Positions 1,362-14,110 of a DNA stretch of 25,078 nucleotides are shown in pieces. Positions within the stretch are counted from its first letter, which is position 1; every line of letters begins with the position of its first letter. This stretch comes from an uncultured Lachnospiraceae bacterium (GTDB lineage: Bacteria; Bacillota; Clostridia; Lachnospirales; Lachnospiraceae), in NCBI GenBank assembly GCA_945643825.1, contig CALZEZ010000001.1, positions 1 through 25,078 of the forward strand, given 5' to 3'. The position numbers were made by a program, and so were the translations under genes. The notes beneath the pieces are model-generated. The model ran no database searches. It was not told where the DNA came from and saw only the letters and a list, made by a program, of their open reading frames with translations.

Positions 1362-2291
1362 ATGGAACAGAATAATATCATAAATAATTCCGAACTGGAA
1401 ATGGCCGTACAGACCTTTGCAAAGGAGCAGAACAAGGAAAATCTTGCAAAGCTTATGGCGTTGATGCACACTGCAAGACTCCTTGTACCGGCTGTTTTTC
1501 CGTCGGACATGGATATGAGTCTTCTTGAGAATATGCCGCAGGGAGAGCCTACCAAAATTCCGGAGGGCGTTAAGCTTCTGCCGGCTGTATTAAGAAATCC
1601 GGATGGAGATGGCTTCTTTCCGGCTTTTACAGGAAAGGAGCAGATTCCGGAGAATCAGAAATACCCGGCGATTCTTCTTCTGTCTTATGTAGAAATCAGA
1701 AACATGATTGATAAATCAAACGGGCAGATTAAGGCAATGGTGGTGAATCCGTTTACGGATAATCTCATTTTAAATCCTGCTTTTCTGGAAGCTACCAAGC
1801 GTGCTGAGGCAGAGGCACCCAAGCAGATTAAGATGTCAATTCCGCAGTTTCATCATGTGATCCGCCTGCAAGTGGAACGGACCATTCTGCCTGCGCTTCT
1901 TGCGACCGATACGGCTTCTTCCATGGAGAAGCTTGCAGCTGAGCCGGAAAAATTCGTTTATGCATTGTTTGACAAGGCGTATGAACCGGGGAGTGTTGCG
2001 AATCCATATAGAGTGAGTGATTTTTCGTCCATGGTGCTGGATATCAGTGACACGATGCAGTACATTGCAATCAGAATGCCAGCTAAAAATATGGCGAAGG
2101 GGGTCTGCCGTAACATATATGTCGCATACAATCCACAGACAGGTCGCCAGGCCTATTACGTGGCTATTCAGGCTGAAGGTCGAAAGATTTCACTCGTGGA
2201 AATCAAAGGACCGAGTGAGATTGTGGATCTGGGCGATGCTCCCGGTGAAGGAGAAGAGATTCGTCGTATCATGGAGGCGTTCGAACAGTAG
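1362..2291 (+). CDS. SseB-family domain protein with an uncharacterised C-terminal domain, 309 aa
   Basis: The N-terminal ~145 aa carry the SseB-like pattern LLVP...LLPAVLRNPDGDGFFPAFT..EQIP...AMVVNPFTDNLIL. The C-terminal half was not assigned. Confidence 0.75.
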   Translation: MEQNNIINNSELEMAVQTFAKEQNKENLAKLMALMHTARLLVPAVFPSDMDMSLLENMPQGEPTKIPEGVKLLPAVLRNPDGDGFFPAFTGKEQIPENQKYPAILLLSYVEIRNMIDKSNGQIKAMVVNPFTDNLILNPAFLEATKRAEAEAPKQIKMSIPQFHHVIRLQVERTILPALLATDTASSMEKLAAEPEKFVYALFDKAYEPGSVANPYRVSDFSSMVLDISDTMQYIAIRMPAKNMAKGVCRNIYVAYNPQTGRQAYYVAIQAEGRKISLVEIKGPSEIVDLGDAPGEGEEIRRIMEAFEQ

Positions 2292-2346
2292 GAGGGTGAA
2301 TTGCGTATATTAATCTTAGCAAGTATTAGAGAGGTTAGTGTGAAAT

Positions 2347-3090
2347 ATGACATTTAAACGAATAGATGACAGCACGATCCGCTGCATTGTGACAGAAGAA
2401 GATCTGGAAGAGAACGGTCTGGAACTGGATGACTTTTTTACACAGTCTGATAAGGCACAGGATTTTCTGAGGGATATAGTGGAACAGGCAGCAAGAGAGG
2501 TCGGCTATGAGACACATCAGGGTATGGTGTCGCTACAGCTTATGCCGTTGCCGAATCATGCTCTGGCAATTACCTTTTCTGAGGTTGAGTCAGATGATCT
2601 TCATACGATGGTAGAGAGTATTCGAGATCTGATACAGGATGTGAAGGAGAAGGTGAAGAAGAAAGGTGTGCTGCAGGATGGAGATGCTCTGCATCGTGAA
2701 GAAATGACCACAAATGTGGCCAATGCACCGGTCGAAAATGTAGAAAAGAAAGCTCCTGTGAAGAAAGCTTCTGCGGAGAAGGCTCATGCGCAGCAGGCAC
2801 AAATGCGTATGTTTGCTTTTGTGAATCTGCGCTATGTGATTCAGTTTGCAAGGATATGCACCGACAAAAATCCGATAGAGAGCACATTGTATCTGGACAA
2901 AGAGCAGAAGCTGTATTATCTGCTTTTGGAGAAGGGTAGGCTGTCTGTGAAACGCTTCAATGTGCTGTGCACCAATGCTACGGAATTCAGCACTTATATA
3001 CAGAATGGAGAACAGATGCTGCCCTATCTGGAGGAGCATGGAGAGAAGCTGATTGCACATCGGGCAGTAAAGGTTTTGGCGAAGCTGTGA
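2347..3090 (+). CDS. mecA: ClpC adaptor protein MecA family, 247 aa
   Basis: N-terminus MTFKRIDDSTIRCIVTEEDLEENGLELDDFF matches the MecA N-domain. An Ala/Lys-rich linker follows, then a C-domain (FAFVNLRYVIQFA...STLY...YYLLL...EFS...YLEEHGEKLIAHRAVKVL). Confidence 0.85.
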   Translation: MTFKRIDDSTIRCIVTEEDLEENGLELDDFFTQSDKAQDFLRDIVEQAAREVGYETHQGMVSLQLMPLPNHALAITFSEVESDDLHTMVESIRDLIQDVKEKVKKKGVLQDGDALHREEMTTNVANAPVENVEKKAPVKKASAEKAHAQQAQMRMFAFVNLRYVIQFARICTDKNPIESTLYLDKEQKLYYLLLEKGRLSVKRFNVLCTNATEFSTYIQNGEQMLPYLEEHGEKLIAHRAVKVLAKL

Positions 3091-3287
3091 TGAAGAAGAA
3101 TGATGCGACAACGCAGGCAAACTGCGATTATTGTTCCTATTATATGTACGATGAAGAGGATGAATCATATTACTGTGAGAAAGATCTGGATGAGGATGAA
3201 ATGTATCGTTTCTTGACAGGTGCATCCAGAGAGTGTCCGTATTTTCAGTACGGAGACGAATATCGCATTGTGAGACACCAAATGTAG
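3090..3287 (+). CDS. Small acidic Cys-rich protein (DUF6472-like), 65 aa
   Basis: ATG overlaps the mecA stop (TGATG). Sequence CDYC-x13-C-x19-CPYF...DEYRIVRHQM resembles the clostridial DUF6472 family as recalled; not searched. Confidence 0.75.
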   Translation: MKKNDATTQANCDYCSYYMYDEEDESYYCEKDLDEDEMYRFLTGASRECPYFQYGDEYRIVRHQM

Positions 3288-3301
3288 AGGAAGATTTTAG
3301 C

Positions 3302-4585
3302 ATGAACCTTGAATTGATGGTGTATTGGGTAATCCCATTCATGCTTTCGTTCCTGATTATTATCTCAGGAGTTTTTGAAATAATTAAATATTTTGCAATC
3401 TATTATCGTGTAGGGAAGGCGGAGCTGATCCTGAATGGAATGTTTGGCATAACCTTCGGTATCTGGTCTCTTGCTATTTTAGGAGGAAATGGACTATTTG
3501 CAGTAAGGATTATAAGCTTTATGCTCTTTCCGATTTTCTACGCGTTCTTTGTGGACAGAACACCTGTGGAACAAAACGGGATTCGCTGGCTGCAGAGGAT
3601 TCTCTTCTGTTACAGTATTGTGAGTATGCTGCTTTTGGGCATCATCCTTTATGTAGATGGATCAACTGCCTGTGCTTTTTGGAAGCTTGGATATGGAAAT
3701 ATTGTGTTTATCATGCTTATGGCGATGCCTGGGGTTGTTATTCAGAGAAAACGGGGACTACACGGCTGGATACGAATCCTTTCACGAGCCATACTTGTTA
3801 TTGGGATGAGTCTGGAGGCAATTTGCTTTTGGAAGGGACTGGAGCAGTTTGAGGGAATGGCTGCCCGGATTGCAACAGGGCTTTATCTATTGTTTTATAA
3901 TATCCATCTGGCTCAGGAGACAGGAGAACTGGTGCAGGAGCATATTGACAGCTCGCGGGCTCAGCTGGAGATACAGAGACAGCTTATGATGAATCAGATC
4001 AACCCTCACTTTATTTTCAATTCGTTGAATTGTATTCTTGCTCTGATCAGTAAAGAGCCGCAGGAGGCGCGTGATGCGATATATACCTTTGCAAAATATC
4101 TGAGGGCGAATTTTGACGCAATGGCATCCTATGGACTGATTCGGTTTGAACAGGAGCTGGTGCAGATACGTGCGTATCTTAAGCTTCAGCAGAAGAGATT
4201 TCCCGGGCAGATTAATGTATCGATGGATTTTGAGAGCACGGATTTTCTGATACCGGCACTTACGGTACAGCAGTTTATAGAAAATGCTGTCAGCTATGGT
4301 CTTAGCAGATGCAACAGAAACGGACGATTGTTTCTAAGAACAATTCTTCATCAAAGCAGTGTTGAAATACAAATACAGCTTGAGGGTGGCGGAATCCCCG
4401 GGATATCTGGACGGGAGAGACAGATGTTAGCTGAGAGAGCGGAGAGTGTACGACTCAGACTGTCGAAGCTGCCGCGAAGTGAGGTAGTGTGGGAGTGGAA
4501 GGACTCAGGGGAAGGGAATGTGATAATCACAATTCCTACAGATGAAAAGAGCATTGTGGAATATGAAAACAATAATTGTGGATGA
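3302..4585 (+). CDS. LytS/YehU-type membrane sensor histidine kinase with degenerate ATP-binding domain, 427 aa
   Basis: Several hydrophobic TM segments, then H-box QINPHFIFNSLN (His at 4007-4009) and N-box ENAVSYG. The G1 (DxGxG) and G2 (GxGL) boxes are not conserved. RBS GAGG precedes ATG 3302. Confidence 0.85.
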   Translation: MNLELMVYWVIPFMLSFLIIISGVFEIIKYFAIYYRVGKAELILNGMFGITFGIWSLAILGGNGLFAVRIISFMLFPIFYAFFVDRTPVEQNGIRWLQRILFCYSIVSMLLLGIILYVDGSTACAFWKLGYGNIVFIMLMAMPGVVIQRKRGLHGWIRILSRAILVIGMSLEAICFWKGLEQFEGMAARIATGLYLLFYNIHLAQETGELVQEHIDSSRAQLEIQRQLMMNQINPHFIFNSLNCILALISKEPQEARDAIYTFAKYLRANFDAMASYGLIRFEQELVQIRAYLKLQQKRFPGQINVSMDFESTDFLIPALTVQQFIENAVSYGLSRCNRNGRLFLRTILHQSSVEIQIQLEGGGIPGISGRERQMLAERAESVRLRLSKLPRSEVVWEWKDSGEGNVIITIPTDEKSIVEYENNNCG

Positions 4586-5351
4586 TGAGCCATTGGCACT
4601 GGATTTGTTTGAGATGGAGTGCCGTGACATGCCTGAAATCGAGATAATCGGGAGATTTACCCAGCCTGTGGATGCACTTGATTTTGCAAAAAAGCATCCG
4701 ATTGAGTTTGCAGTTCTGGATGTGGAAATGGCAGAGCTAAATGGTATTGAACTTGGCAAGAGATTGAAAGAGCTCTATCCGGAGCTGGTTTTGGTGTATG
4801 TGACAGGATACAGTCAGTACATAGTGGAAACGCTGAAAATAAAAGCAGATTATTGTATTATGAAGCCATATGACCACTATGATATAGAGGATCTGGTGCG
4901 AAGAGCAAAGCTGCTCTCGAGACGACAGGGGCACAGAATAAAAGTCCAGATGTTTGGACGCTTTAATATTTTCGTGGATGGTCAGGTGCTGCAGATCAGT
5001 AACACGAAAGCCAGAGAGCTCCTTGCTCTATGCTTTGACCATAAGGGTGGCATCGTGACTATGGAAGAGGCAATTGACAAGCTTTGGCCAGACAGAGACT
5101 ATGATGAAAGAGTCAAGCGCCTGTATCGCAAGGCGATTATTTCCATACAGAAAGCGTTAAGAGAGGCTGATTGCCGTAATGTATTTGAAACCGGACGAGG
5201 GTGCTGCTACATAAAACCTGAGCAGGTTGACTGTGACTATTATCAATATCTGGAGAATCCCGAGGCACAAAAGGACCAGTTTACCGGAGAATACCTGTTT
5301 GATTATGACTGGGGTGAGGAAACTTTGGCAAATTTTTATGATTTTGACTGA
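4563..5351 (+). CDS. Response regulator, REC plus SARP-type winged-helix output, 262 aa
   Basis: REC has DD (VDDE), phosphoacceptor D53 (VLDVEM), T (VTGY) and KP intact. C-terminus VQMFGRFNIFVDG...KARELLALCF...EEAIDKLWPD is of the SARP/OmpR wHTH type. It overlaps the sensor's 3' end by 23 nt. Confidence 0.9.
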   Translation: MKTIIVDDEPLALDLFEMECRDMPEIEIIGRFTQPVDALDFAKKHPIEFAVLDVEMAELNGIELGKRLKELYPELVLVYVTGYSQYIVETLKIKADYCIMKPYDHYDIEDLVRRAKLLSRRQGHRIKVQMFGRFNIFVDGQVLQISNTKARELLALCFDHKGGIVTMEEAIDKLWPDRDYDERVKRLYRKAIISIQKALREADCRNVFETGRGCCYIKPEQVDCDYYQYLENPEAQKDQFTGEYLFDYDWGEETLANFYDFD

Positions 5352-5352
5352 G

Positions 5353-5388
5353 TCGGTGGCAAATCGGTAGCACTTCCTGTGCTATGAT
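5353..5388 (+). promoter_or_regulatory. Activator-type promoter: direct repeat plus extended -10
   Basis: TCGGTGGCA (5353-5361) and TCGGTAGCA (5364-5372) have an 11-bp period and cover the expected -35 position. TGcTATGAT lies at 5380-5388. There is no consensus -35. Confidence 0.6.
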
Positions 5389-5433
5389 GCTTTCGAAAAG
5401 TCCAAAATAAGTAAAAGGGGAAGGGCTTAAGGG

Positions 5434-5485
5434 AAGTGATAGAAGAGTTTGAGAAACAGGGGAACTCTTCTATCACTTTGTTTTT
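5434..5485 (+). terminator. Intrinsic terminator-like hairpin overlapping the predicted DUF3810 start
   Basis: Perfect 16-bp stem AAGTGATAGAAGAGTT (5434-5449) / AACTCTTCTATCACTT (5463-5478) with a 13-nt loop, followed by TGTTTTT. Confidence 0.7.
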
Positions 5486-6596
5486 GATTATGACTGTTTA
5501 TTTGATTCTTTTTCTGGTTATCAGCTTCATAAATGTTATTGCATGGACGAGCTCTGGATTTGCAGACTGGTATGTGAGTCATGTTTTTCCTCTGTGGGGA
5601 GAGACATATGGACGATTAACTGGTCTTTTCCCTTTTTCAGTCGGTGAGTGGATGCTCTATGGCTTTGTGGTGCTTCTTTTCTTTTCCGCGGTGGCTGCGG
5701 TTATTCTTGGAATACGTTTCTTAATCAGGCGGGCGAAACCGGGACGCTTTTTTTTGCGTTTCTATAGAGGCGTTGCATGGTTGCTTCTTGTTGTTTATTT
5801 AATCATGACACTCAATTGTCTGATTTTGTATCATACAAATCCATTTGCAGACAAAATTCTGCCGGAGGAAACGGCAAGGGATTATACGGTGGAGGAACTG
5901 ATCCAACTGAGAAACAGACTTGTGACACAGGCAAACGAGCTGTGTGAACAGATGGAACGCGATGAGAATGGAGCTGTGATCTACAATGGAGATGCTAAGG
6001 CACAGGCTGTTTCTCAAATGCAGAGGCTGGGAGAGGAGATTGTGCAGCTACAGGGTTACTATCCCAATCCGAAGGGGCTTTTCTTTTCCGGCTTTTTTAG
6101 TCAGCAGTATATTCTGGGCTATTATTTCCCTTTTTCAATGGAGGCAAACTATAACACACAGATGTATATCATGAATGAACCTGCGACTTTCTGTCATGAG
6201 CTTTCACACCTGAAGGGAGTTCTTTTTGAGGATGACGCGAACTTTATCAGCTATCTGGCGTGCAGTACGTCAGATGATAAGTTTTTCCAATATAGTGCTG
6301 TTCTCAGTGTGCTGGGATATGTAGATGAAGCGTTTTTTGAGAGTCTCTCGGAGAATGTAGAGTTGTATTATCAGTATCCCTTGATTTCGGAGCAGGTTTG
6401 TAAGGACTCGGTTTTCCTGACAGAAGAGGCATGGGCAGCTGTGGAAGAGAATGCTATTTTGTCTACGGAGACCGTATCAAAGGCCTCACATGCCTTTCTG
6501 GATACAAATCTGACCCTGAATGGTGTGGAAGAGGGAATTGCCAGCTATGGAAATGTTGTGTGGTTACTTTTAAGGTATTATGATACAATGGATTAG
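5436..6596 (+). CDS. DUF3810-family membrane-anchored putative zinc metallopeptidase
   Basis: N-terminal TM helices, LTGLFPFSVGE, YFPFSMEANYN and HELSHLKGVLFEDDANFISYLAC (HExxH plus downstream E). The start is uncertain: GTG 5436 lies within a hairpin, and ATG 5490 is an alternative. Confidence 0.85.
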   Translation: MIEEFEKQGNSSITLFLIMTVYLILFLVISFINVIAWTSSGFADWYVSHVFPLWGETYGRLTGLFPFSVGEWMLYGFVVLLFFSAVAAVILGIRFLIRRAKPGRFFLRFYRGVAWLLLVVYLIMTLNCLILYHTNPFADKILPEETARDYTVEELIQLRNRLVTQANELCEQMERDENGAVIYNGDAKAQAVSQMQRLGEEIVQLQGYYPNPKGLFFSGFFSQQYILGYYFPFSMEANYNTQMYIMNEPATFCHELSHLKGVLFEDDANFISYLACSTSDDKFFQYSAVLSVLGYVDEAFFESLSENVELYYQYPLISEQVCKDSVFLTEEAWAAVEENAILSTETVSKASHAFLDTNLTLNGVEEGIASYGNVVWLLLRYYDTMD

Positions 6597-6636
6597 ACGC
6601 TTTGTCACACGATGGATAATGTGTTAGGAGACCAAA

Positions 6637-9378
6637 ATGAACTGGAAAGCGAAGAAGAAGGTCACATCACAATGGAAGAAATGGATATATCTGTTATTTG
6701 GGGTTGTTCTTACCAGTGTGATTGTTCTGTTTGTTATTATGGCGGTTTCTCCCTATAAGAATATGTGGTTTGGCAGGAGAGGATGTTCTGTCTGGAATCA
6801 GGGCTGGCTTTATGAGACAACGGATGGACAGTCGGAGAGAATCACCCTGCCGGCGGAAATTGACATGGACGGCAGACAGGAAATACGGATTAACAATGTA
6901 ATACCGACGGTCTATGGGGCGGATCAGACCTTATGCATTCGAAGCTCACAGCAGGATGTTGAGGTCTGGATCGATGGTAAGATGATAGAAACCTACTCAG
7001 ATGAGCATTACCGTGTGATTGGGCAGGCATCGGCAAGTGTATGGCTTTTTGTCGACTTAAAGGAGGAGTATTGCGGAAAAACGATTGAACTGATTTTCCG
7101 TTCTGTGCTGCCGGAGTATGCAGGAATACTGAATGAGGTATACATTGGTGATTCTTTGGGCATCATGTTCTATCTGCTTGGTGAGTATGGTCTGCTTCTC
7201 TATACCGGCCTGATTGTTCTGATTTCCGGTCTGATTTTTCTGGTGCTACATGTTGCGCTTCGCAAAAATGTGTGGCGAAGTCGACAGATGTTTTTTCTTG
7301 CCCTCTTTCTAATCTGCTTTGCCGGGTGGATTTTGTGTGAGAGCAAGATTCGCCAGATTTATGCCGGAAATATGAATTTGCTAAACACTATGTCCTTTTT
7401 CTTCACCATGGTGTTTCCGATACCGATGTGTCTATACATCAACGAGATAGAAGAGCGGCGTTATGAGGAGATCTTCTATGGATTAACCGTTGTTTATGCA
7501 ATTAATTATTTTATAAACCTTGGATTGGTGTTATTTACTTCGACACAGTTAGTTGACACAACGAAACGAACCGTTGTATTGATTGGAGCTGGACTGGTCT
7601 GTATCCTCGTTACGCTGTTTCTTAGCGTAAAAAAAGAAAAACAGAGATTTCTCTCCACGGTTTGTGTCGGCATAACATTACTGCTGGTGTTCTGTGCCAT
7701 TGATCTGCTTAAGTATCTGTTTGTAATTTCCATGGGATTTGGAACCTATAGCTGTATTGGAGTGCTGATCTTTCTGACACTGATTTTTGTCAACACAATG
7801 ATTCAGCTGATGAATGTGGTAAAACAAAGATTTCAGGTGACGATGGAGAACCGTGAGAAGACTCTGTTTCTGCGTAATGTAAGTCGTGAAATTGAGCAGC
7901 CGCTGCAGACGATCCAGCATATGACCAGACGACTTCAACAGAGAAAGCTTCCCGCCGAGGAACTGGCATTTATTGATACCATTCAGGCGGCTTCACTTCA
8001 GATGATGGGAATTCTTTCTGAGATTGAGGATTATTCTGTGACGGAACCGGGTAACCTGACTGTAGATAAAGGCGCCTACCGCTTTGAACGATTTTTCACA
8101 GATATGATGTGTGCTCTGATCTTTGAGGAGCCAAAGAAGATAATCAGAATAACGAGCCAGATCGATAATCAGATTCCGCAGGGACTGATTGGAGATGAAA
8201 TTCACCTCAGACAGTTTTATCTGGAATTCATCAAAAAAGCGATGGCAACGATGCAGGAGGGAATCCTGCGGGTGCGGGTATGGTTTGAGGAGCTTGACGC
8301 GGAGGAGGGCAAGCTTGTGGTTGAGCTTGTTCTTCCCGGTGCGGATGCATGGACCTCAGATGCGAATATCAATCTGTTGCTGGATGCTTTGGAGGGTGAA
8401 CTGGAGTGCTTCCCCGAGTATGGGAAGTGGGAAAGCACAGTGGTTCGCGTCGGTATTCTGCAGGGGATCTACGATGGAAGACCATCGAATTATGGGAAGC
8501 ATGTCAATCTTGATGCTGCGTGGGACAGATCAGCAAATGAAATTCAGCTTCAGAATACCAGGATTTTGTTAGTCGGTGAGAACAGAATTGAACTGGTGAT
8601 TGAAAAATCGGTTTTGGAAGGCTATGGAGCGGAGATTGTCGTTGCAGAGAATGCAAACCAGGCGGTCAGCTTTATGGAAGAACATCGCGATATTGATATG
8701 ATTTTCGTGGAAGTAAATACAGATGGAATGGATGGGATAGAATGTGTTAACAGAATCCGCAGGATTCCGGAGGATTACTATAAGCTTCTTCCAATTATTG
8801 CCGTGAGGAGTGTGCAGGATAAAATTGCCGGAGAGATATATCTGCAGGCAAGTATGAATGCGTGGATAGTCAAGCCCTTCCGGGCGGATCAGCTGGAAAC
8901 TCTTTTGCAGCTGTATATTAAGCAGGAAAAGAAGCGGAGTGTTTCACTGTTAGACAGAATTTCATGGGAAACGGAGGAGAGCAGGCAGAGTGGCTCGAGG
9001 TATGTGGAACTGCTGTCCAGGCTGCGCGGCGTGGATGTGTCAAGTGGCATCAGCTGCTGTGATAATAAGATGACAGTGTATCTGTCTGCCCTTCGTATCT
9101 TTGATAATACGGATTGGAGTTCAAAACTGGATTATCTGATCAAAAAAGAAGATTTGCAGCAGTATGGAATATATGTTTCGCATTTAAAGATTTGTGCAAT
9201 AAATATTGGGGCAGGCGATTTTGCCGAGTGGTCTCGAGTCGTTGAGATTGCGGTGCAGAGGCAGGAGCTTTCCTATGTGAAGGAGTTGCATCAGGAATAT
9301 ATTACCCAGTATAGAGGAATTCATGAAATGATTCATGAAGCCTTGAAGGTGTTTGATGAACCCATGATAATGGAGTAG
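6637..9378 (+). CDS. Hybrid sensor (extracellular domain - multi-TM - HisKA - HATPase - REC - Hpt), predicted pseudokinase, 913 aa
   Basis: The domain order is recognisable from residual motifs (KTLFLRNVSREI, IGDEIHLRQ, MDGIE..IR, KP, LK...NIGA), but the phosphorelay residues are substituted. RBS AGGAG precedes the ATG; the ORF is uninterrupted. Confidence 0.85.
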   Translation: MNWKAKKKVTSQWKKWIYLLFGVVLTSVIVLFVIMAVSPYKNMWFGRRGCSVWNQGWLYETTDGQSERITLPAEIDMDGRQEIRINNVIPTVYGADQTLCIRSSQQDVEVWIDGKMIETYSDEHYRVIGQASASVWLFVDLKEEYCGKTIELIFRSVLPEYAGILNEVYIGDSLGIMFYLLGEYGLLLYTGLIVLISGLIFLVLHVALRKNVWRSRQMFFLALFLICFAGWILCESKIRQIYAGNMNLLNTMSFFFTMVFPIPMCLYINEIEERRYEEIFYGLTVVYAINYFINLGLVLFTSTQLVDTTKRTVVLIGAGLVCILVTLFLSVKKEKQRFLSTVCVGITLLLVFCAIDLLKYLFVISMGFGTYSCIGVLIFLTLIFVNTMIQLMNVVKQRFQVTMENREKTLFLRNVSREIEQPLQTIQHMTRRLQQRKLPAEELAFIDTIQAASLQMMGILSEIEDYSVTEPGNLTVDKGAYRFERFFTDMMCALIFEEPKKIIRITSQIDNQIPQGLIGDEIHLRQFYLEFIKKAMATMQEGILRVRVWFEELDAEEGKLVVELVLPGADAWTSDANINLLLDALEGELECFPEYGKWESTVVRVGILQGIYDGRPSNYGKHVNLDAAWDRSANEIQLQNTRILLVGENRIELVIEKSVLEGYGAEIVVAENANQAVSFMEEHRDIDMIFVEVNTDGMDGIECVNRIRRIPEDYYKLLPIIAVRSVQDKIAGEIYLQASMNAWIVKPFRADQLETLLQLYIKQEKKRSVSLLDRISWETEESRQSGSRYVELLSRLRGVDVSSGISCCDNKMTVYLSALRIFDNTDWSSKLDYLIKKEDLQQYGIYVSHLKICAINIGAGDFAEWSRVVEIAVQRQELSYVKELHQEYITQYRGIHEMIHEALKVFDEPMIME

Positions 9379-9384
9379 ATAGTA

Positions 9385-10512
9385 ATGGAAAATATGGTAA
9401 CCTACGTACGAAAGACACCGGAAACCTTTCAGGCCAAAAGCTGGAATGACGTGGACTGCCTTGTATTATGCCAGCTGGTATATCTGAAATTTGAAGATAT
9501 TCTTCCGGTGACCGAGATAGAGAGTAGCTTCCGGAGAAAAAAGGAACGTGTCACATTGAAATGCCTGGACAATCATCCCGAGAAGGAGAAGCTCTTTCGG
9601 GATGAGAGATATGAGGTCACGAACAGGGCTTTGTGGAACGCTGTGACAGCAAGTCCAAGATTCTCGGCTCTGGAGGTCGACTACGTGGTTGCCAGTCTGG
9701 ACTTGAGTGCAGAAACCCAGTTTTGTGCAGTAACCTTTTTTCTCCCGGATGGCAGAGCCTTTGTTGCATTTCGTGGAACCGATGAGAGTATTGTCGGCTG
9801 GAAGGAGGATTTTAATCTTGCCTTTTCCAAAACAGTTCCGGCGCAGGAAAAAAGCGTGATCTATCTGAACAAGGTCGCTGGAAAGATAAAGGGTGCCATC
9901 CTGACGGGAGGACACTCCAAGGGAGGAAATCTGGCAATTTATGCTGCCATGAATTGTAAACCGAGTGTGCAGAAACGCTTAGAACAGATCTACAGTATGG
10001 ATGGTCCCGGATTCCGTACAGAGATTCTTGAGCAAGGGCATTATGACCGAATTGCTGCACGGGTAAAGAAGATTCTTCCACATTCCTCTCTTGTCGGGAT
10101 GCTGTTTGAAAGAAGCAAGGACTTTGAAGTGATTGAGAGCAGAGCGATTGGTCTTTTGCAGCATGATCCAATGAGCTGGGTAGTAAGAAACGGAGCTTTC
10201 GTGAGGAGTAAGAAGATGGCGGCATCTGCCATGCGCCTTGACGATACCATTAATGACTGGTTGGATACACTAGATGAAGAACATACCAGGGTTTTTGTCA
10301 ATACGATTTTTGAGGTTCTTAACGCAACGGAATCGGATAATCTGATTGATCTGGGAATGGATCGATGGAAGCATATGCAGATGATTTTAAGTGCTATGGC
10401 ACAGTTAGACGACGAGACAAAGGAAGCTGTAAAGAGTGTGTTTCATACATTTTTTGAGCTTAGCAAAGAACACTTGACGCTACCGAAAAAGAATAGGAGG
10501 AAAAACATATGA
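9385..10512 (+). CDS. DUF2974-family alpha/beta hydrolase (lipase/esterase-like), 375 aa
   Basis: FNDVD-like WNDVDCLVLCQLVY, AFRGTDESIVGWKEDFN, nucleophile elbow GHSKGG, DGPG and QHDP. Confidence 0.85.
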   Translation: MENMVTYVRKTPETFQAKSWNDVDCLVLCQLVYLKFEDILPVTEIESSFRRKKERVTLKCLDNHPEKEKLFRDERYEVTNRALWNAVTASPRFSALEVDYVVASLDLSAETQFCAVTFFLPDGRAFVAFRGTDESIVGWKEDFNLAFSKTVPAQEKSVIYLNKVAGKIKGAILTGGHSKGGNLAIYAAMNCKPSVQKRLEQIYSMDGPGFRTEILEQGHYDRIAARVKKILPHSSLVGMLFERSKDFEVIESRAIGLLQHDPMSWVVRNGAFVRSKKMAASAMRLDDTINDWLDTLDEEHTRVFVNTIFEVLNATESDNLIDLGMDRWKHMQMILSAMAQLDDETKEAVKSVFHTFFELSKEHLTLPKKNRRKNI

Positions 10513-11081
10513 TGAAGGAGCTTGTATTAAAAACCAGATCCTACAGACGCTTTGACGAGACGGAAAAAATGGACAGGGAGCAGCTTTTGGAGCTTGTCGA
10601 CCTGGCGAGGATGACAGCGTCTACGTCAAATTCCCAGGCACTCAGGTTCTATATCTCCTGCGATGAGCAGACAAATGCAAAGATTTTTTCAACACTTCAT
10701 TGGGCAGGAGCGCTGCCGGAGTGGGATGGTCCTACGGAAGGAGAGCGACCGACGGGCTACATTGTGATTCTGTGTGACTTAGAGCGTGGAAAGAATAAAA
10801 TGTGGGATGATGGAATCACGGCGCAGACGATGATGCTTGGAGCAGTGGAGAAGGGCTATGGGGGCTGCATGTTTGGAAGCGTCGACCGTTCGAAGCTGTT
10901 GGAGCTTCTTGGACTTTCCCCTGAGAAATATAGTGTGGATCTGGTGCTTGCACTCGGGAAACCGATGGAGGAGGTTCGTATTGTTCCGGTGCCGGAGAAT
11001 GGGGATGTACGCTATTATCGTGATGAGAATCAGGTTCATTATGTACCCAAGAGAGAACTGGAAGATATTGTGCTTCCATAA
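10509..11081 (+). CDS. Nitroreductase-family flavoprotein, 190 aa
   Basis: TRSYRRF FMN-binding start, STSNSQ, D.GITAQTMMLGAVEKGYGGCMFG and LALGKP. ATGA overlap with the upstream stop; RBS AGGAGG. Confidence 0.9.
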   Translation: MMKELVLKTRSYRRFDETEKMDREQLLELVDLARMTASTSNSQALRFYISCDEQTNAKIFSTLHWAGALPEWDGPTEGERPTGYIVILCDLERGKNKMWDDGITAQTMMLGAVEKGYGGCMFGSVDRSKLLELLGLSPEKYSVDLVLALGKPMEEVRIVPVPENGDVRYYRDENQVHYVPKRELEDIVLP

Positions 11082-13012: not shown

Positions 13013-14110
13013 ATGGATTTAAATTTGAGACCTGCGAGTGAATGCAAATATGATGCGGTATCCCTTGGAGAGGTTATGCTCCGCCTGGATCCGGGTGAGG
13101 GACGTATCCGGACAGCCAGACAGTTTAGAGCCTGGGAGGGCGGCGGAGAGTATAATGTGGTACGCGGACTGCGCAGATGCTTCGGTATGAAGACTGGCGT
13201 GATTACTGCTTTTGCAGATAATGAGATTGGTATGCTGATGGAGGACTTTATCCTGCAGGGAGGCGTTGATACCTCTTTGATTAAATGGGTGAAAACCGAT
13301 GGTATCGGACGAATCTGTCGAAATGGTATCAACTTTACAGAGCGCGGATTCGGTATTCGTGGTGCTGTGGGATGTTCTGATCGTGCCAATACGGCGATTT
13401 CCAAAGCTACGCCTGAGGATTTTGACTTTGATTATATTTTCGGCGAGCTTGGAGCAAGATGGCTTCATACCGGTGGAATTTACGCTGCTTTATCGGAGCA
13501 GTCCTGTAAGACAGTTATTGAGGCAATCAAAACAGCTAAGAAATACGGAACAATCGTATCTTATGACTTGAATTATCGCCCTTCTATGTGGAGCGCTATC
13601 GGTGGACAGGCAAAGGCACAGGAAGTAAATAAAGAGATTGCGAAGTATGTAGATGTCATGATCGGAAACGAGGAAGATTTCACGGCTTGCCTTGGTTTCG
13701 AGATTGAGGGAAATGATGCTAACCTCAAGGAATTGAATCTTGATGGCTACAAGAAGATGATCAATGAAGCAGCTAAGACCTATCCGAACTTCAAGGCGGT
13801 TGCAACGACTCTCCGTGAGGTAAAGACAGCTACCGTGAACGACTGGAGCGCAATCTGCTGGGCAGATGGTGAGATTTATAAGGCCAAGGATTACAAGGGA
13901 CTTGAAATCATGGATCGTGTAGGCGGTGGAGATTCCTTTGCATCCGGTCTGATTTATGGATTGATGACAACGGGAGATGCCGGTATAGCCGTAAATTATG
14001 GAGCAGCTCATGGTGCGTTGGCTATGACGACTCCAGGAGACACCACAATGGCAAGCAAGAAGGAAGTGGAAGCAATCATGGGTGGTGCCGGAGCACGTGT
14101 ACAAAGATAA
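13013..14110 (+). CDS. kdgK: 2-dehydro-3-deoxygluconokinase (PfkB family), 365 aa
   Basis: GEVMLRL, EGGGEYNV, SYDLNYRPSMW, GNEED and the PfkB signature DRVGGGDSFASG. Adjacent to eda. Confidence 0.9.
   Translation: MDLNLRPASECKYDAVSLGEVMLRLDPGEGRIRTARQFRAWEGGGEYNVVRGLRRCFGMKTGVITAFADNEIGMLMEDFILQGGVDTSLIKWVKTDGIGRICRNGINFTERGFGIRGAVGCSDRANTAISKATPEDFDFDYIFGELGARWLHTGGIYAALSEQSCKTVIEAIKTAKKYGTIVSYDLNYRPSMWSAIGGQAKAQEVNKEIAKYVDVMIGNEEDFTACLGFEIEGNDANLKELNLDGYKKMINEAAKTYPNFKAVATTLREVKTATVNDWSAICWADGEIYKAKDYKGLEIMDRVGGGDSFASGLIYGLMTTGDAGIAVNYGAAHGALAMTTPGDTTMASKKEVEAIMGGAGARVQR

Follow-up and report, generated by a model that had tools for sequence, protein, structure and literature searches.

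Two apparently separable signalling relics around a conserved response regulator–Mbeg1-like operon of pig-gut and rumen Clostridia

We analysed a stretch of 25,078 nucleotides (nt) from an uncultured Lachnospiraceae bacterium (assembly GCA_945643825.1, contig CALZEZ010000001.1, positions 1 to 25,078), hereafter the window, in which a response regulator (RR) lies between two sensor-like proteins. The assembly is a metagenome-assembled genome (MAG) of 1.95 Mb, 67% complete, and near-identical sequence is present in pig-gut metatranscriptome and metagenome runs. All genes and elements of the window described below are on the forward strand. The first gene of the region encodes a LytS/YesM-type pseudo-histidine kinase of 427 amino acids (aa; 3302-4585), in which Pfam detects His_kinase (PF06580) only, and the RR gene (262 aa; 4563-5351; Pfam Response_reg) overlaps it by 23 nt. 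A spacer of 138 nt separates the RR from a membrane protein of the DUF3810 family (PF12725, 300 bits; 368 aa; 5490-6596), behind which lie a dead tripartite hybrid sensor (913 aa; 6637-9378; HisKA and Response_reg being its only Pfam matches), an Mbeg1-like alpha/beta hydrolase (DUF2974, PF11187, 270 bits; 375 aa; 9385-10512) and a nitroreductase (190 aa; 10509-11081; Pfam Nitroreductase), followed by genes of sugar-acid metabolism. The gaps from DUF3810 to the hybrid (40 nt), from the hybrid to the Mbeg1-like gene (6 nt) and from there to the nitroreductase (-4 nt) had been given correctly in the initial annotation of this DNA; the nitroreductase is translationally coupled to the Mbeg1-like gene.

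The LytS-like sensor is built of six membrane helices, a DHp domain and a CA-like domain. Its H-box, NPHFIFN, is intact (His236 and Asn240), and the histidine is invariant in all aligned relatives. That the ATP-binding domains of both sensors are eroded, as had been proposed, was borne out by profile searches as well as at the level of residues. HATPase_c is absent from both sensors in whole-protein Pfam searches and in searches of the excised C-terminal parts at E<=10; residues 320-450 of the LytS-like protein gave no Pfam HATPase_c match at E<=10, and a search of all six frames of the genome with PF02518 returned 31 matches elsewhere and 0 in the two sensor genes. Among 5.8 billion proteins the sole LytS-like relative is P0005, from contig L038, at 62% identity, and the precomputed Pfam annotations of P0004 and P0005 hold PF06580 only. 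No close LytS-like orthologue was found in the same-genus genomes G001-G003, which are 64-85% complete. Where the family has DDGxGF at the G1 motif, the window protein reads LEGGGI and the orthologue LKGNGF (Asp replaced by Glu and Lys, respectively); the G2 glycine is Arg in both; and the K/H-G that the family carries after the N-box has become S-Y-G in both, so that the basic residue is gone. The N-box Asn is present in the window protein (IENAVSYG) and is Ser in P0005 (VESAVSYG), whose ATP-site degeneracy equals or goes beyond that of the window protein. Given the change of the N-box Asn to Ser and of G1 to Lys in P0005, the ATP-contacting positions must drift freely. The initial annotation had suggested looking for the same substitutions in orthologues: the sensor losses proved to be common to the orthologues, or further advanced in them, and are not strain-specific decay.

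An AlphaFold2 (AF2) model of the LytS-like protein, with a predicted local distance difference test (pLDDT) score of 80, keeps the six membrane helices, the DHp hairpin and the CA-like alpha/beta domain. Its best match in the PDB is the kinase domain of GanS (6SWJ; E 4e-12, 24% identity), and the DivL structure 4Q20 is also among the fold matches. Ratios of non-synonymous to synonymous substitution rates (dN/dS, omega) were computed between the window and L038, for which synonymous sites are saturated (dS 1.3-2). They amount to 0.16-0.18 for the whole LytS-like gene, 0.08 for its DHp part and 0.11 for its CA-like part, next to 0.02-0.04 for the RR and 0.07 each for DUF3810 and the Mbeg1-like gene; differences within the species in the LytS-like gene are 4 synonymous and 0 non-synonymous. 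The LytS-like protein has kept the kinase fold and lost the ATP-binding residues, and its gene is under purifying selection. Since the residues that contact ATP are lost, this sensor is most likely unable to autophosphorylate.

The RR, by contrast with its sensor, was said to keep every phosphorylation residue, and D7, D8, D53, T81 and K101 are indeed all present, in a protein that is 91% identical in L038. Its translation probably starts at ATG 4563. At the C-terminus Pfam Trans_reg_C reaches 16.8 bits, below the cut-off of 26.2, and there is no BTAD domain in the protein. The AF2 model (pLDDT 84) matches full-length PrrA, VanR, PhoP and DrrB at E 1e-9 to 1e-10, as well as OmpR/PhoB regulators solved on direct repeats, and as modelled the output domain is a winged helix of the OmpR/SARP type. 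The LytTR output domain of the earlier description does not agree with this fold, and we rejected it on Pfam and NCBIfam scans together with the matches of the model to OmpR-type regulators.

The spacer between the RR and DUF3810 is about 90% identical in the window and in L038; its flanking genes are 69-82% identical at the nucleotide level, with saturated synonymous sites, and therefore the spacer must be functional. The repeat with an 11-bp period that had been noticed directly after the RR stop codon is real: two direct repeats of 11 bp, TCGGTGGCAAA (5353-5363) and TCGGTAGCACT (5364-5374), are followed after 8 bp by TATGAT (5383-5388), preceded by TG. Together these form, by sequence inspection, an extended -10 element (TGcTATGAT, 5380-5388), which is invariant in L038 and lacks a -35 consensus. 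Then come about 40 less-conserved bases and a terminator-like hairpin with a T-run (5434-5486). The repeat occurs once in the window, with a match in 0 of 100 shuffles, and its copy in L038 has one mismatch; no further copies were found in the 1.95-Mb assembly, and none in the other clade loci except L038. In SARP promoters the direct repeats have an 11-bp period, with 8 bp between the 3' repeat and the -10 box (PMC10936776). With its 11-bp period, its 8 bp to the -10 and its poor -35, the spacer has this SARP/PhoB-type promoter layout. The view that the repeat is the likely binding site of the RR thus gains from the geometry of an OmpR/SARP-type activator and from conservation in L038; the site remains a candidate.

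The hairpin between the repeat and DUF3810 adds to the earlier description. Its arms (5434-5449 and 5463-5478) pair perfectly over 16 bp (z -5.3), the T-run ends 4 nt before the DUF3810 ATG, and the L038 copy has the same arms and a loop that departs by a single indel. Rfam has no family in the window or in the spacer. In other clade members the spacer is only 16-40 nt long and contains no such element, which makes the arrangement specific to the lineage of the window and L038. Pig-gut metatranscriptome contigs span the whole region and cross the hairpin with even coverage, and in two metatranscriptome runs the 5' part of DUF3810 is deepest; the contigs give no transcript ends, and as a sign of transcription across the hairpin they are weak. 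A possible antiterminator (5368-5377 with 5432-5441) was discarded, being too weak beside the 16-bp stem and poorer in L038. On either side of the spacer there is an exact copy of the 12-nt sequence TGATTATGACTG (5300-5311 and 5485-5496), with a 92% copy at 5339-5350, and TGGCAAAT occurs at 5326 and 5357. These repeats may have been left behind by a duplication or insertion from which the spacer arose; as TGATTATGACTG is not conserved in L038, we make no claim to such an origin.

The regulator belongs to a wider group. More than 300 RR homologues were found at E<=1e-40; a maximum-likelihood tree was made of 40 RRs, and neighbourhoods were taken from genome, metagenome and assembly look-ups. 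Regulators that accompany canonical HATPase_c kinases of 430-700 aa are outgroups, comprising all those below 40% identity plus L057, L087 and L088 (49-54%), and a clade of 22 rows (support 93/76) is without a canonical kinase. The unit of this clade is RR-(X)-Mbeg1-like, in which X is DUF3810, an NA37 nucleoid protein, TrkA-TrkH or nothing, and a Peptidase_C26 gene is often found on the opposite strand. Downstream, the partner that stays constant is the Mbeg1-like gene, which comes after the RR in 20 of the 25 RR-clade loci surveyed; the other five are two outgroup loci that are not of the RR-Mbeg1 kind, two contigs that end early and one that ends inside TrkH.

What lies 5' of the RR takes three forms. 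In the window and L038 it is the pseudokinase, of 427 and 434 aa. In L054-56, L085 and L067 it is a protein of 146-193 aa made of a DHp domain only, which has no membrane part, keeps (P/L)HFxFN and ends before G1. In the third form nothing is detectable by a DHp profile. An exhaustive search with the 146-aa protein gave at least about 20 top representative clusters (at the 50% identity level) of 145-182 aa, most of which keep the His motif, and the DHp-only proteins are therefore a real family and not truncation artefacts; the literature, under the phrases tried, held nothing on natural DHp-only proteins. Each of the three independent lineages that have a DHp partner keeps the receiver signature DDDTK intact, and the receiver is degenerate in three of the four partnerless lineages, the exception being L059/L086. 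In a small sample of lineages that are related to one another the link is suggestive rather than statistical: receiver intactness would seem to track the presence of a DHp partner.

Some loci met in this survey deserve a mention of their own. The metagenome contig L064 carries a PfkB-like gene (L064:1-1067) with 94% protein identity to window 13013-14110, and further on (L064:2442-5851) a partnerless RR (52%, receiver E-K-D-T-K), DUF3810 (48%) and an Mbeg1-like gene (40%); a related species therefore holds an orphan version of the module at another place. Directly 5' of the partnerless RR in NA37-type loci there is a conserved protein of 123-124 aa (L045:6267-6641, L086:4511-4882), for which neither a Pfam family nor a DHp-profile match was found. 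L045 itself (CAYUKT010000059.1) is deposited as a MAG of an uncultured Bacteroides; the RR, NA37, Mbeg1-like and Peptidase_C26 genes on this contig group with Clostridia loci in the tree, and it is probably mis-binned. In L087 and L088, relatives with a canonical kinase (RR 49-51%), the RR precedes VWA/FctA pilin-like surface proteins of giant size (2,100 to at least 3,900 aa), an output that differs from that of the Mbeg1 clade.

Gene order in the closest relatives divides the region into two units. One, unit A, consists of the LytS-like sensor, the RR, the 138-nt spacer, DUF3810 and the Mbeg1-like gene, and recurs in the sole close relative L038, where sensor, RR, spacer and DUF3810 are followed after 6 nt by the Mbeg1-like gene and the hybrid is precisely missing. 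The other, unit B, consists of the hybrid and the Mbeg1-like gene, and recurs in the same-genus species that carries the hybrid orthologue P0062; in the G001 lineage the order is SseB-MecA-DUF6472, then a fructan cassette (ABC transporter, LacI, GH32), then hybrid-Mbeg1-ROK. Neither an RR orthologue nor DUF3810 was found in the three same-genus genomes (64-85% complete). From this separate occurrence it follows that the hybrid is independent of the RR unit, the Mbeg1-like gene being their common neighbour. As far as gene order can tell, the hybrid is separable from the RR unit and dispensable in the closest relative. The proposal that it is an output of the RR circuit was not supported, with L038 having the RR without the hybrid and the G001 lineage the reverse; the separate occurrence leaves the hybrid not shown as an output or a partner of that circuit. 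In L039-L041, from the same-genus species, the place of sensor, RR and DUF3810 (about 1900-9800) is taken by an ABC sugar transporter, a LacI regulator, a GH32 fructan hydrolase and a Lactamase_B protein; what stands between DUF6472 and the hybrid sensor varies.

The hybrid sensor has an extracellular region, a 7TMR-DISM membrane region, a pseudo-HisKA, a pseudo-CA, a pseudo-receiver and an Hpt-like end. Its H-box His is Arg and its N-box Asn is Lys, both also in the 39% orthologue P0062, and aligned to intact HisKA-HATPase_c-REC-Hpt relatives it lacks G1, G2 and the ATP lid by deletion. In the receiver the DD pair has become GE, the acceptor Asp is replaced by Glu and the Thr by Arg, and the Hpt His stands one residue out of register; the Hpt domain gave no Pfam match and is recognised solely by alignment to intact relatives. 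TorS, BarA and ArcB are its best NCBIfam matches, far below the cut-offs. In 5.8 billion sequences the hybrid forms two protein clusters, the other being P0062 at 39% identity. Differences within the species in RNA-library contigs are 12 synonymous and 8 non-synonymous, which indicates relaxed constraint and yet no pseudogene, and the gene has a strong ribosome-binding site. Between the hybrid and P0062 the extracellular and 7TM input regions are 43-47% identical, compared with 31-40% for the cytoplasmic parts; that the input regions are best conserved suggests a role as receptor or scaffold without phosphoryl chemistry. If active at all, the hybrid is probably, by analogy with DivL and PsmA, a non-phosphorylating membrane receptor or scaffold.

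As for the other products, DUF3810 is a protein of three membrane helices whose residues 236-240 read HELSH (HExxH), putatively the motif of a zincin metallopeptidase, and is 81% identical in L038. The earlier placement of its start at 5436 had to be given up: GTG 5436 falls within one arm of the hairpin, and in L038 a stop closes its frame; the start is ATG 5490. A literature search on DUF3810 returned nothing, and peptidase activity of the family members is putative. The Mbeg1-like protein has GHSKG at residues 176-180 (a GxSxG nucleophile elbow) and no membrane segment; of its family, Mbeg1-like/DUF2974, an NF-kB-inducing clone is on record (PMC6867899). A second Mbeg1-like gene of the window genome (G000:C329:1435-2097, 237 bits) lies on a 2.8-kb contig. 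No nitroreductase homologue stands beside the module in any surveyed relative.

Taken together, we consider it somewhat more probable than not that two separable relics of signalling systems stand here around an RR-(X)-Mbeg1-like operon which is conserved in Clostridia of the pig gut and rumen, and that they work as follows. Unit A would derive from an ordinary LytS/YesM-type two-component system. The RR may be charged by a non-cognate donor, be it acetyl phosphate or one of the many intact kinases of the genome, and the DHp domain of the pseudokinase could act on it as a signal-gated phosphatase or as a histidine phosphotransferase like Spo0B/ChpT. A dimer of the phosphorylated RR would bind the two 11-bp repeats 8 bp upstream of the extended -10 box and activate the promoter; DUF3810 and what follows it would be reached only by transcripts that get past the hairpin terminator, with attenuated expression or an RNA of about 90 nt as the outcome. 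Unit B would be a genus-restricted, fully dead hybrid of the ArcB/BarA type that retains a conserved 7TMR-DISM input and travels with the Mbeg1-like gene. Within this scheme a signal-gated phosphatase sensor and charging by acetyl phosphate are plausible, and the data agree equally well with histidine phosphotransfer or with a sensor that modulates another kinase in the manner of RocA.

Several points weigh against this scheme. Some active kinase families, of the AgrC type, work in spite of missing G1 motifs; the LytS-like protein of the window still carries its N-box Asn; and the CA-like domain of that protein is under purifying selection. The repeat amounts to two copies in one lineage, with no second site in the genome or in other clade members, and no regulon can be defined from it. 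For simple activation, a strong terminator about 40 nt past the promoter is awkward, and so is a DUF3810 start without a Shine-Dalgarno sequence, while the RNA-library contigs possibly stem from DNA carry-over. The link between DHp partner and receiver comprises about seven independent lineages, one of which (L059/L086) is partnerless with an intact receiver. Finally, the genomes are incomplete, the window assembly being 67% and G001-G003 64-85% complete.

One alternative is that the LytS-like protein is a working autokinase with an unusual ATP pocket and unit A an ordinary two-component system. A CA-like fold predicted at pLDDT 80-94, an omega of 0.11 in the CA part and the N-box Asn of the window protein would suit it; yet HATPase_c is not matched at any threshold, the Glu or Lys at G1, the Arg at G2 in both proteins and the Ser for Asn in the orthologue indicate that these positions are unconstrained, and sister lineages dropped the CA domain entirely with the RR still intact, so that we regard a working autokinase as quite unlikely. 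A RocA-like accessory, in which the pseudokinase heterodimerises with or modulates a distant genuine kinase that phosphorylates the RR, is also unlikely. RocA shares the build of six membrane helices, DHp and degenerate CA and acts via CovS (PMC7028121), and the genome has many intact kinases to serve as the partner. Against this, the His of RocA is dispensable, and here the His and the Asn four residues on are conserved across pseudokinase and DHp-only lineages; moreover, the DHp-only proteins have no membrane part and the pseudokinase gene overlaps the RR as in cognate pairs.

Could the sensors instead be decaying, functionless remnants, with an RR that works without phosphorylation? Many clade members do have no partner and a degenerate receiver, the hybrid is deleted in L038, and the LytS-like gene evolves several times faster than its neighbours. 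Nevertheless, both reading frames are intact across lineages with saturated synonymous sites, the LytS-like omega is 0.16, polymorphisms stand at 4/0 and 12/8 (synonymous/non-synonymous) for the two sensors, the hybrid has its strong ribosome-binding site, and the RR holds all five phospho-residues at 91% identity, which renders mere decay highly improbable. The single five-gene circuit of the initial annotation, with the RR driving DUF3810, the hybrid as second receptor, DUF2974 and the nitroreductase, was built on co-directional genes with gaps of 40, 6 and -4 nt, and no terminator is predicted within 5490-11081 beyond chance. It is weakened by the relatives, in which the RR and the hybrid occur separately and neither unit has the nitroreductase beside it; if the genes are co-transcribed here, insertion may have brought this about as a by-product, and we hold one circuit of five genes to be very unlikely.

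Returning to the two-unit reading, a broader evolutionary proposal can be attached to it, tentatively and with rather more doubt than conviction: a whole clade of gut Clostridia may have turned a LytS/YesM-type two-component system into kinase-less pairs, in which a DHp protein, free-standing (at least 20 clusters of the 146-193 aa form) or anchored in the membrane, with its His but no ATP domain, would be a dedicated phosphatase or phospho-hub for the OmpR-type regulator of the Mbeg1-like operon, charged by acetyl phosphate or foreign kinases. If this were true, the DHp-only proteins would be a new class of two-component accessory and the window protein an intermediate form. Known pseudo-histidine kinases are few (DivL, RocA, PsmA), and kinase-like phosphotransferases come from few relays. 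Here one regulator clade offers an evolutionary series from full kinase through membrane pseudokinase and DHp-only mini-protein to no partner. As the phosphorylation site survives mainly beside a DHp partner, the long-standing question of what a DHp can do for a regulator without an ATP domain of its own (phosphatase, relay or clamp) becomes directly testable. The locus also ties the uncharacterised DUF3810 and Mbeg1-like families to a defined regulator and a candidate operator, giving a handle on their function, and the independence of the second dead sensor guards against over-reading the locus.

Upstream of the region the window has, also on the forward strand, an SseB-like gene (1362-2291), a MecA gene (2347-3090) and a small Cys-rich DUF6472 open reading frame (65 aa; 3090-3287; 93 bits), whose start overlaps the MecA stop codon as ATGA. 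MecA and DUF6472 are conserved as a pair in the same-genus lineage L039-L041, at 82% identity.

How does the locus compare with known systems? In proteins of the Spo0B/ChpT and PhyK/PhyT type, a DHp bundle with a conserved His is joined to a CA-like domain unable to bind ATP, and the phosphoryl group is passed to an RR. Such kinase-like phosphotransferases are treated in PMC5964349. The window protein resembles them in its DHp with conserved His and in a CA-like domain predicted not to bind ATP. However, those proteins are soluble and belong to defined multi-step relays with a known upstream receiver, whereas the window protein is membrane-bound (DHp-only in its sisters) and its upstream donor is not identified. 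RocA of Streptococcus pyogenes, a Firmicute membrane protein with six helices, a DHp and a CA without kinase residues that regulates an RR pathway (PMC7028121), is alike in build. It differs in being encoded away from its RR, in acting via a real kinase, CovS, and in having a dispensable His; the window gene overlaps that of an intact RR, has no kinase in its operon, and encodes a strictly conserved His motif in a DHp of the PF06580 type. GanS/GanT is the closest relative of the DHp-CA part in solved structure and in sequence, with the same PF06580, but GanS has a complete ATP-binding domain.

For the hybrid, the precedents are DivL of Caulobacter and PsmA of Streptomyces, kinase-like proteins turned into non-catalytic regulators (PMC4211667, PMC12963549). 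PsmA is a hybrid-kinase-like pseudokinase, as is the 913-aa hybrid; DivL has Tyr for His and senses DivK~P, and the lineages and partners of both differ from those found here. Unlike in DivL and PsmA, the His, the ATP pocket and the receiver Asp of the window hybrid are all lost at once, and it is confined to one genus. The candidate operator resembles SARP and OmpR/PhoB sites, at which two 11-bp repeats replace the -35 and the 3' repeat is 8 bp from the -10 (PMC10936776), and the RR is predicted to fold like OmpR/PhoB; in comparison with SARP regulators it has a receiver in place of BTAD and a short tail after the winged helix, and the repeat differs from SARP sites in standing directly after the stop codon of its own regulator with a terminator downstream. 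Partnerless clade members (L045, L060-L071) recall RitR and HP1043 in being OmpR-type, without a kinase and with degenerate receivers, and 5U8M and 2HQR are among the fold matches of the RR model; given its intact receiver, the window RR is not of that kind. Since pseudo-histidine kinases and kinase-like phosphotransferases are established, the kind of protein described here is already known. New are the LytS-type DHp family and its pairing in one operon with an intact cognate RR and no kinase, as well as the series from pseudokinase through DHp-only protein to orphan regulator and the link to DUF3810 and the Mbeg1-like hydrolase.

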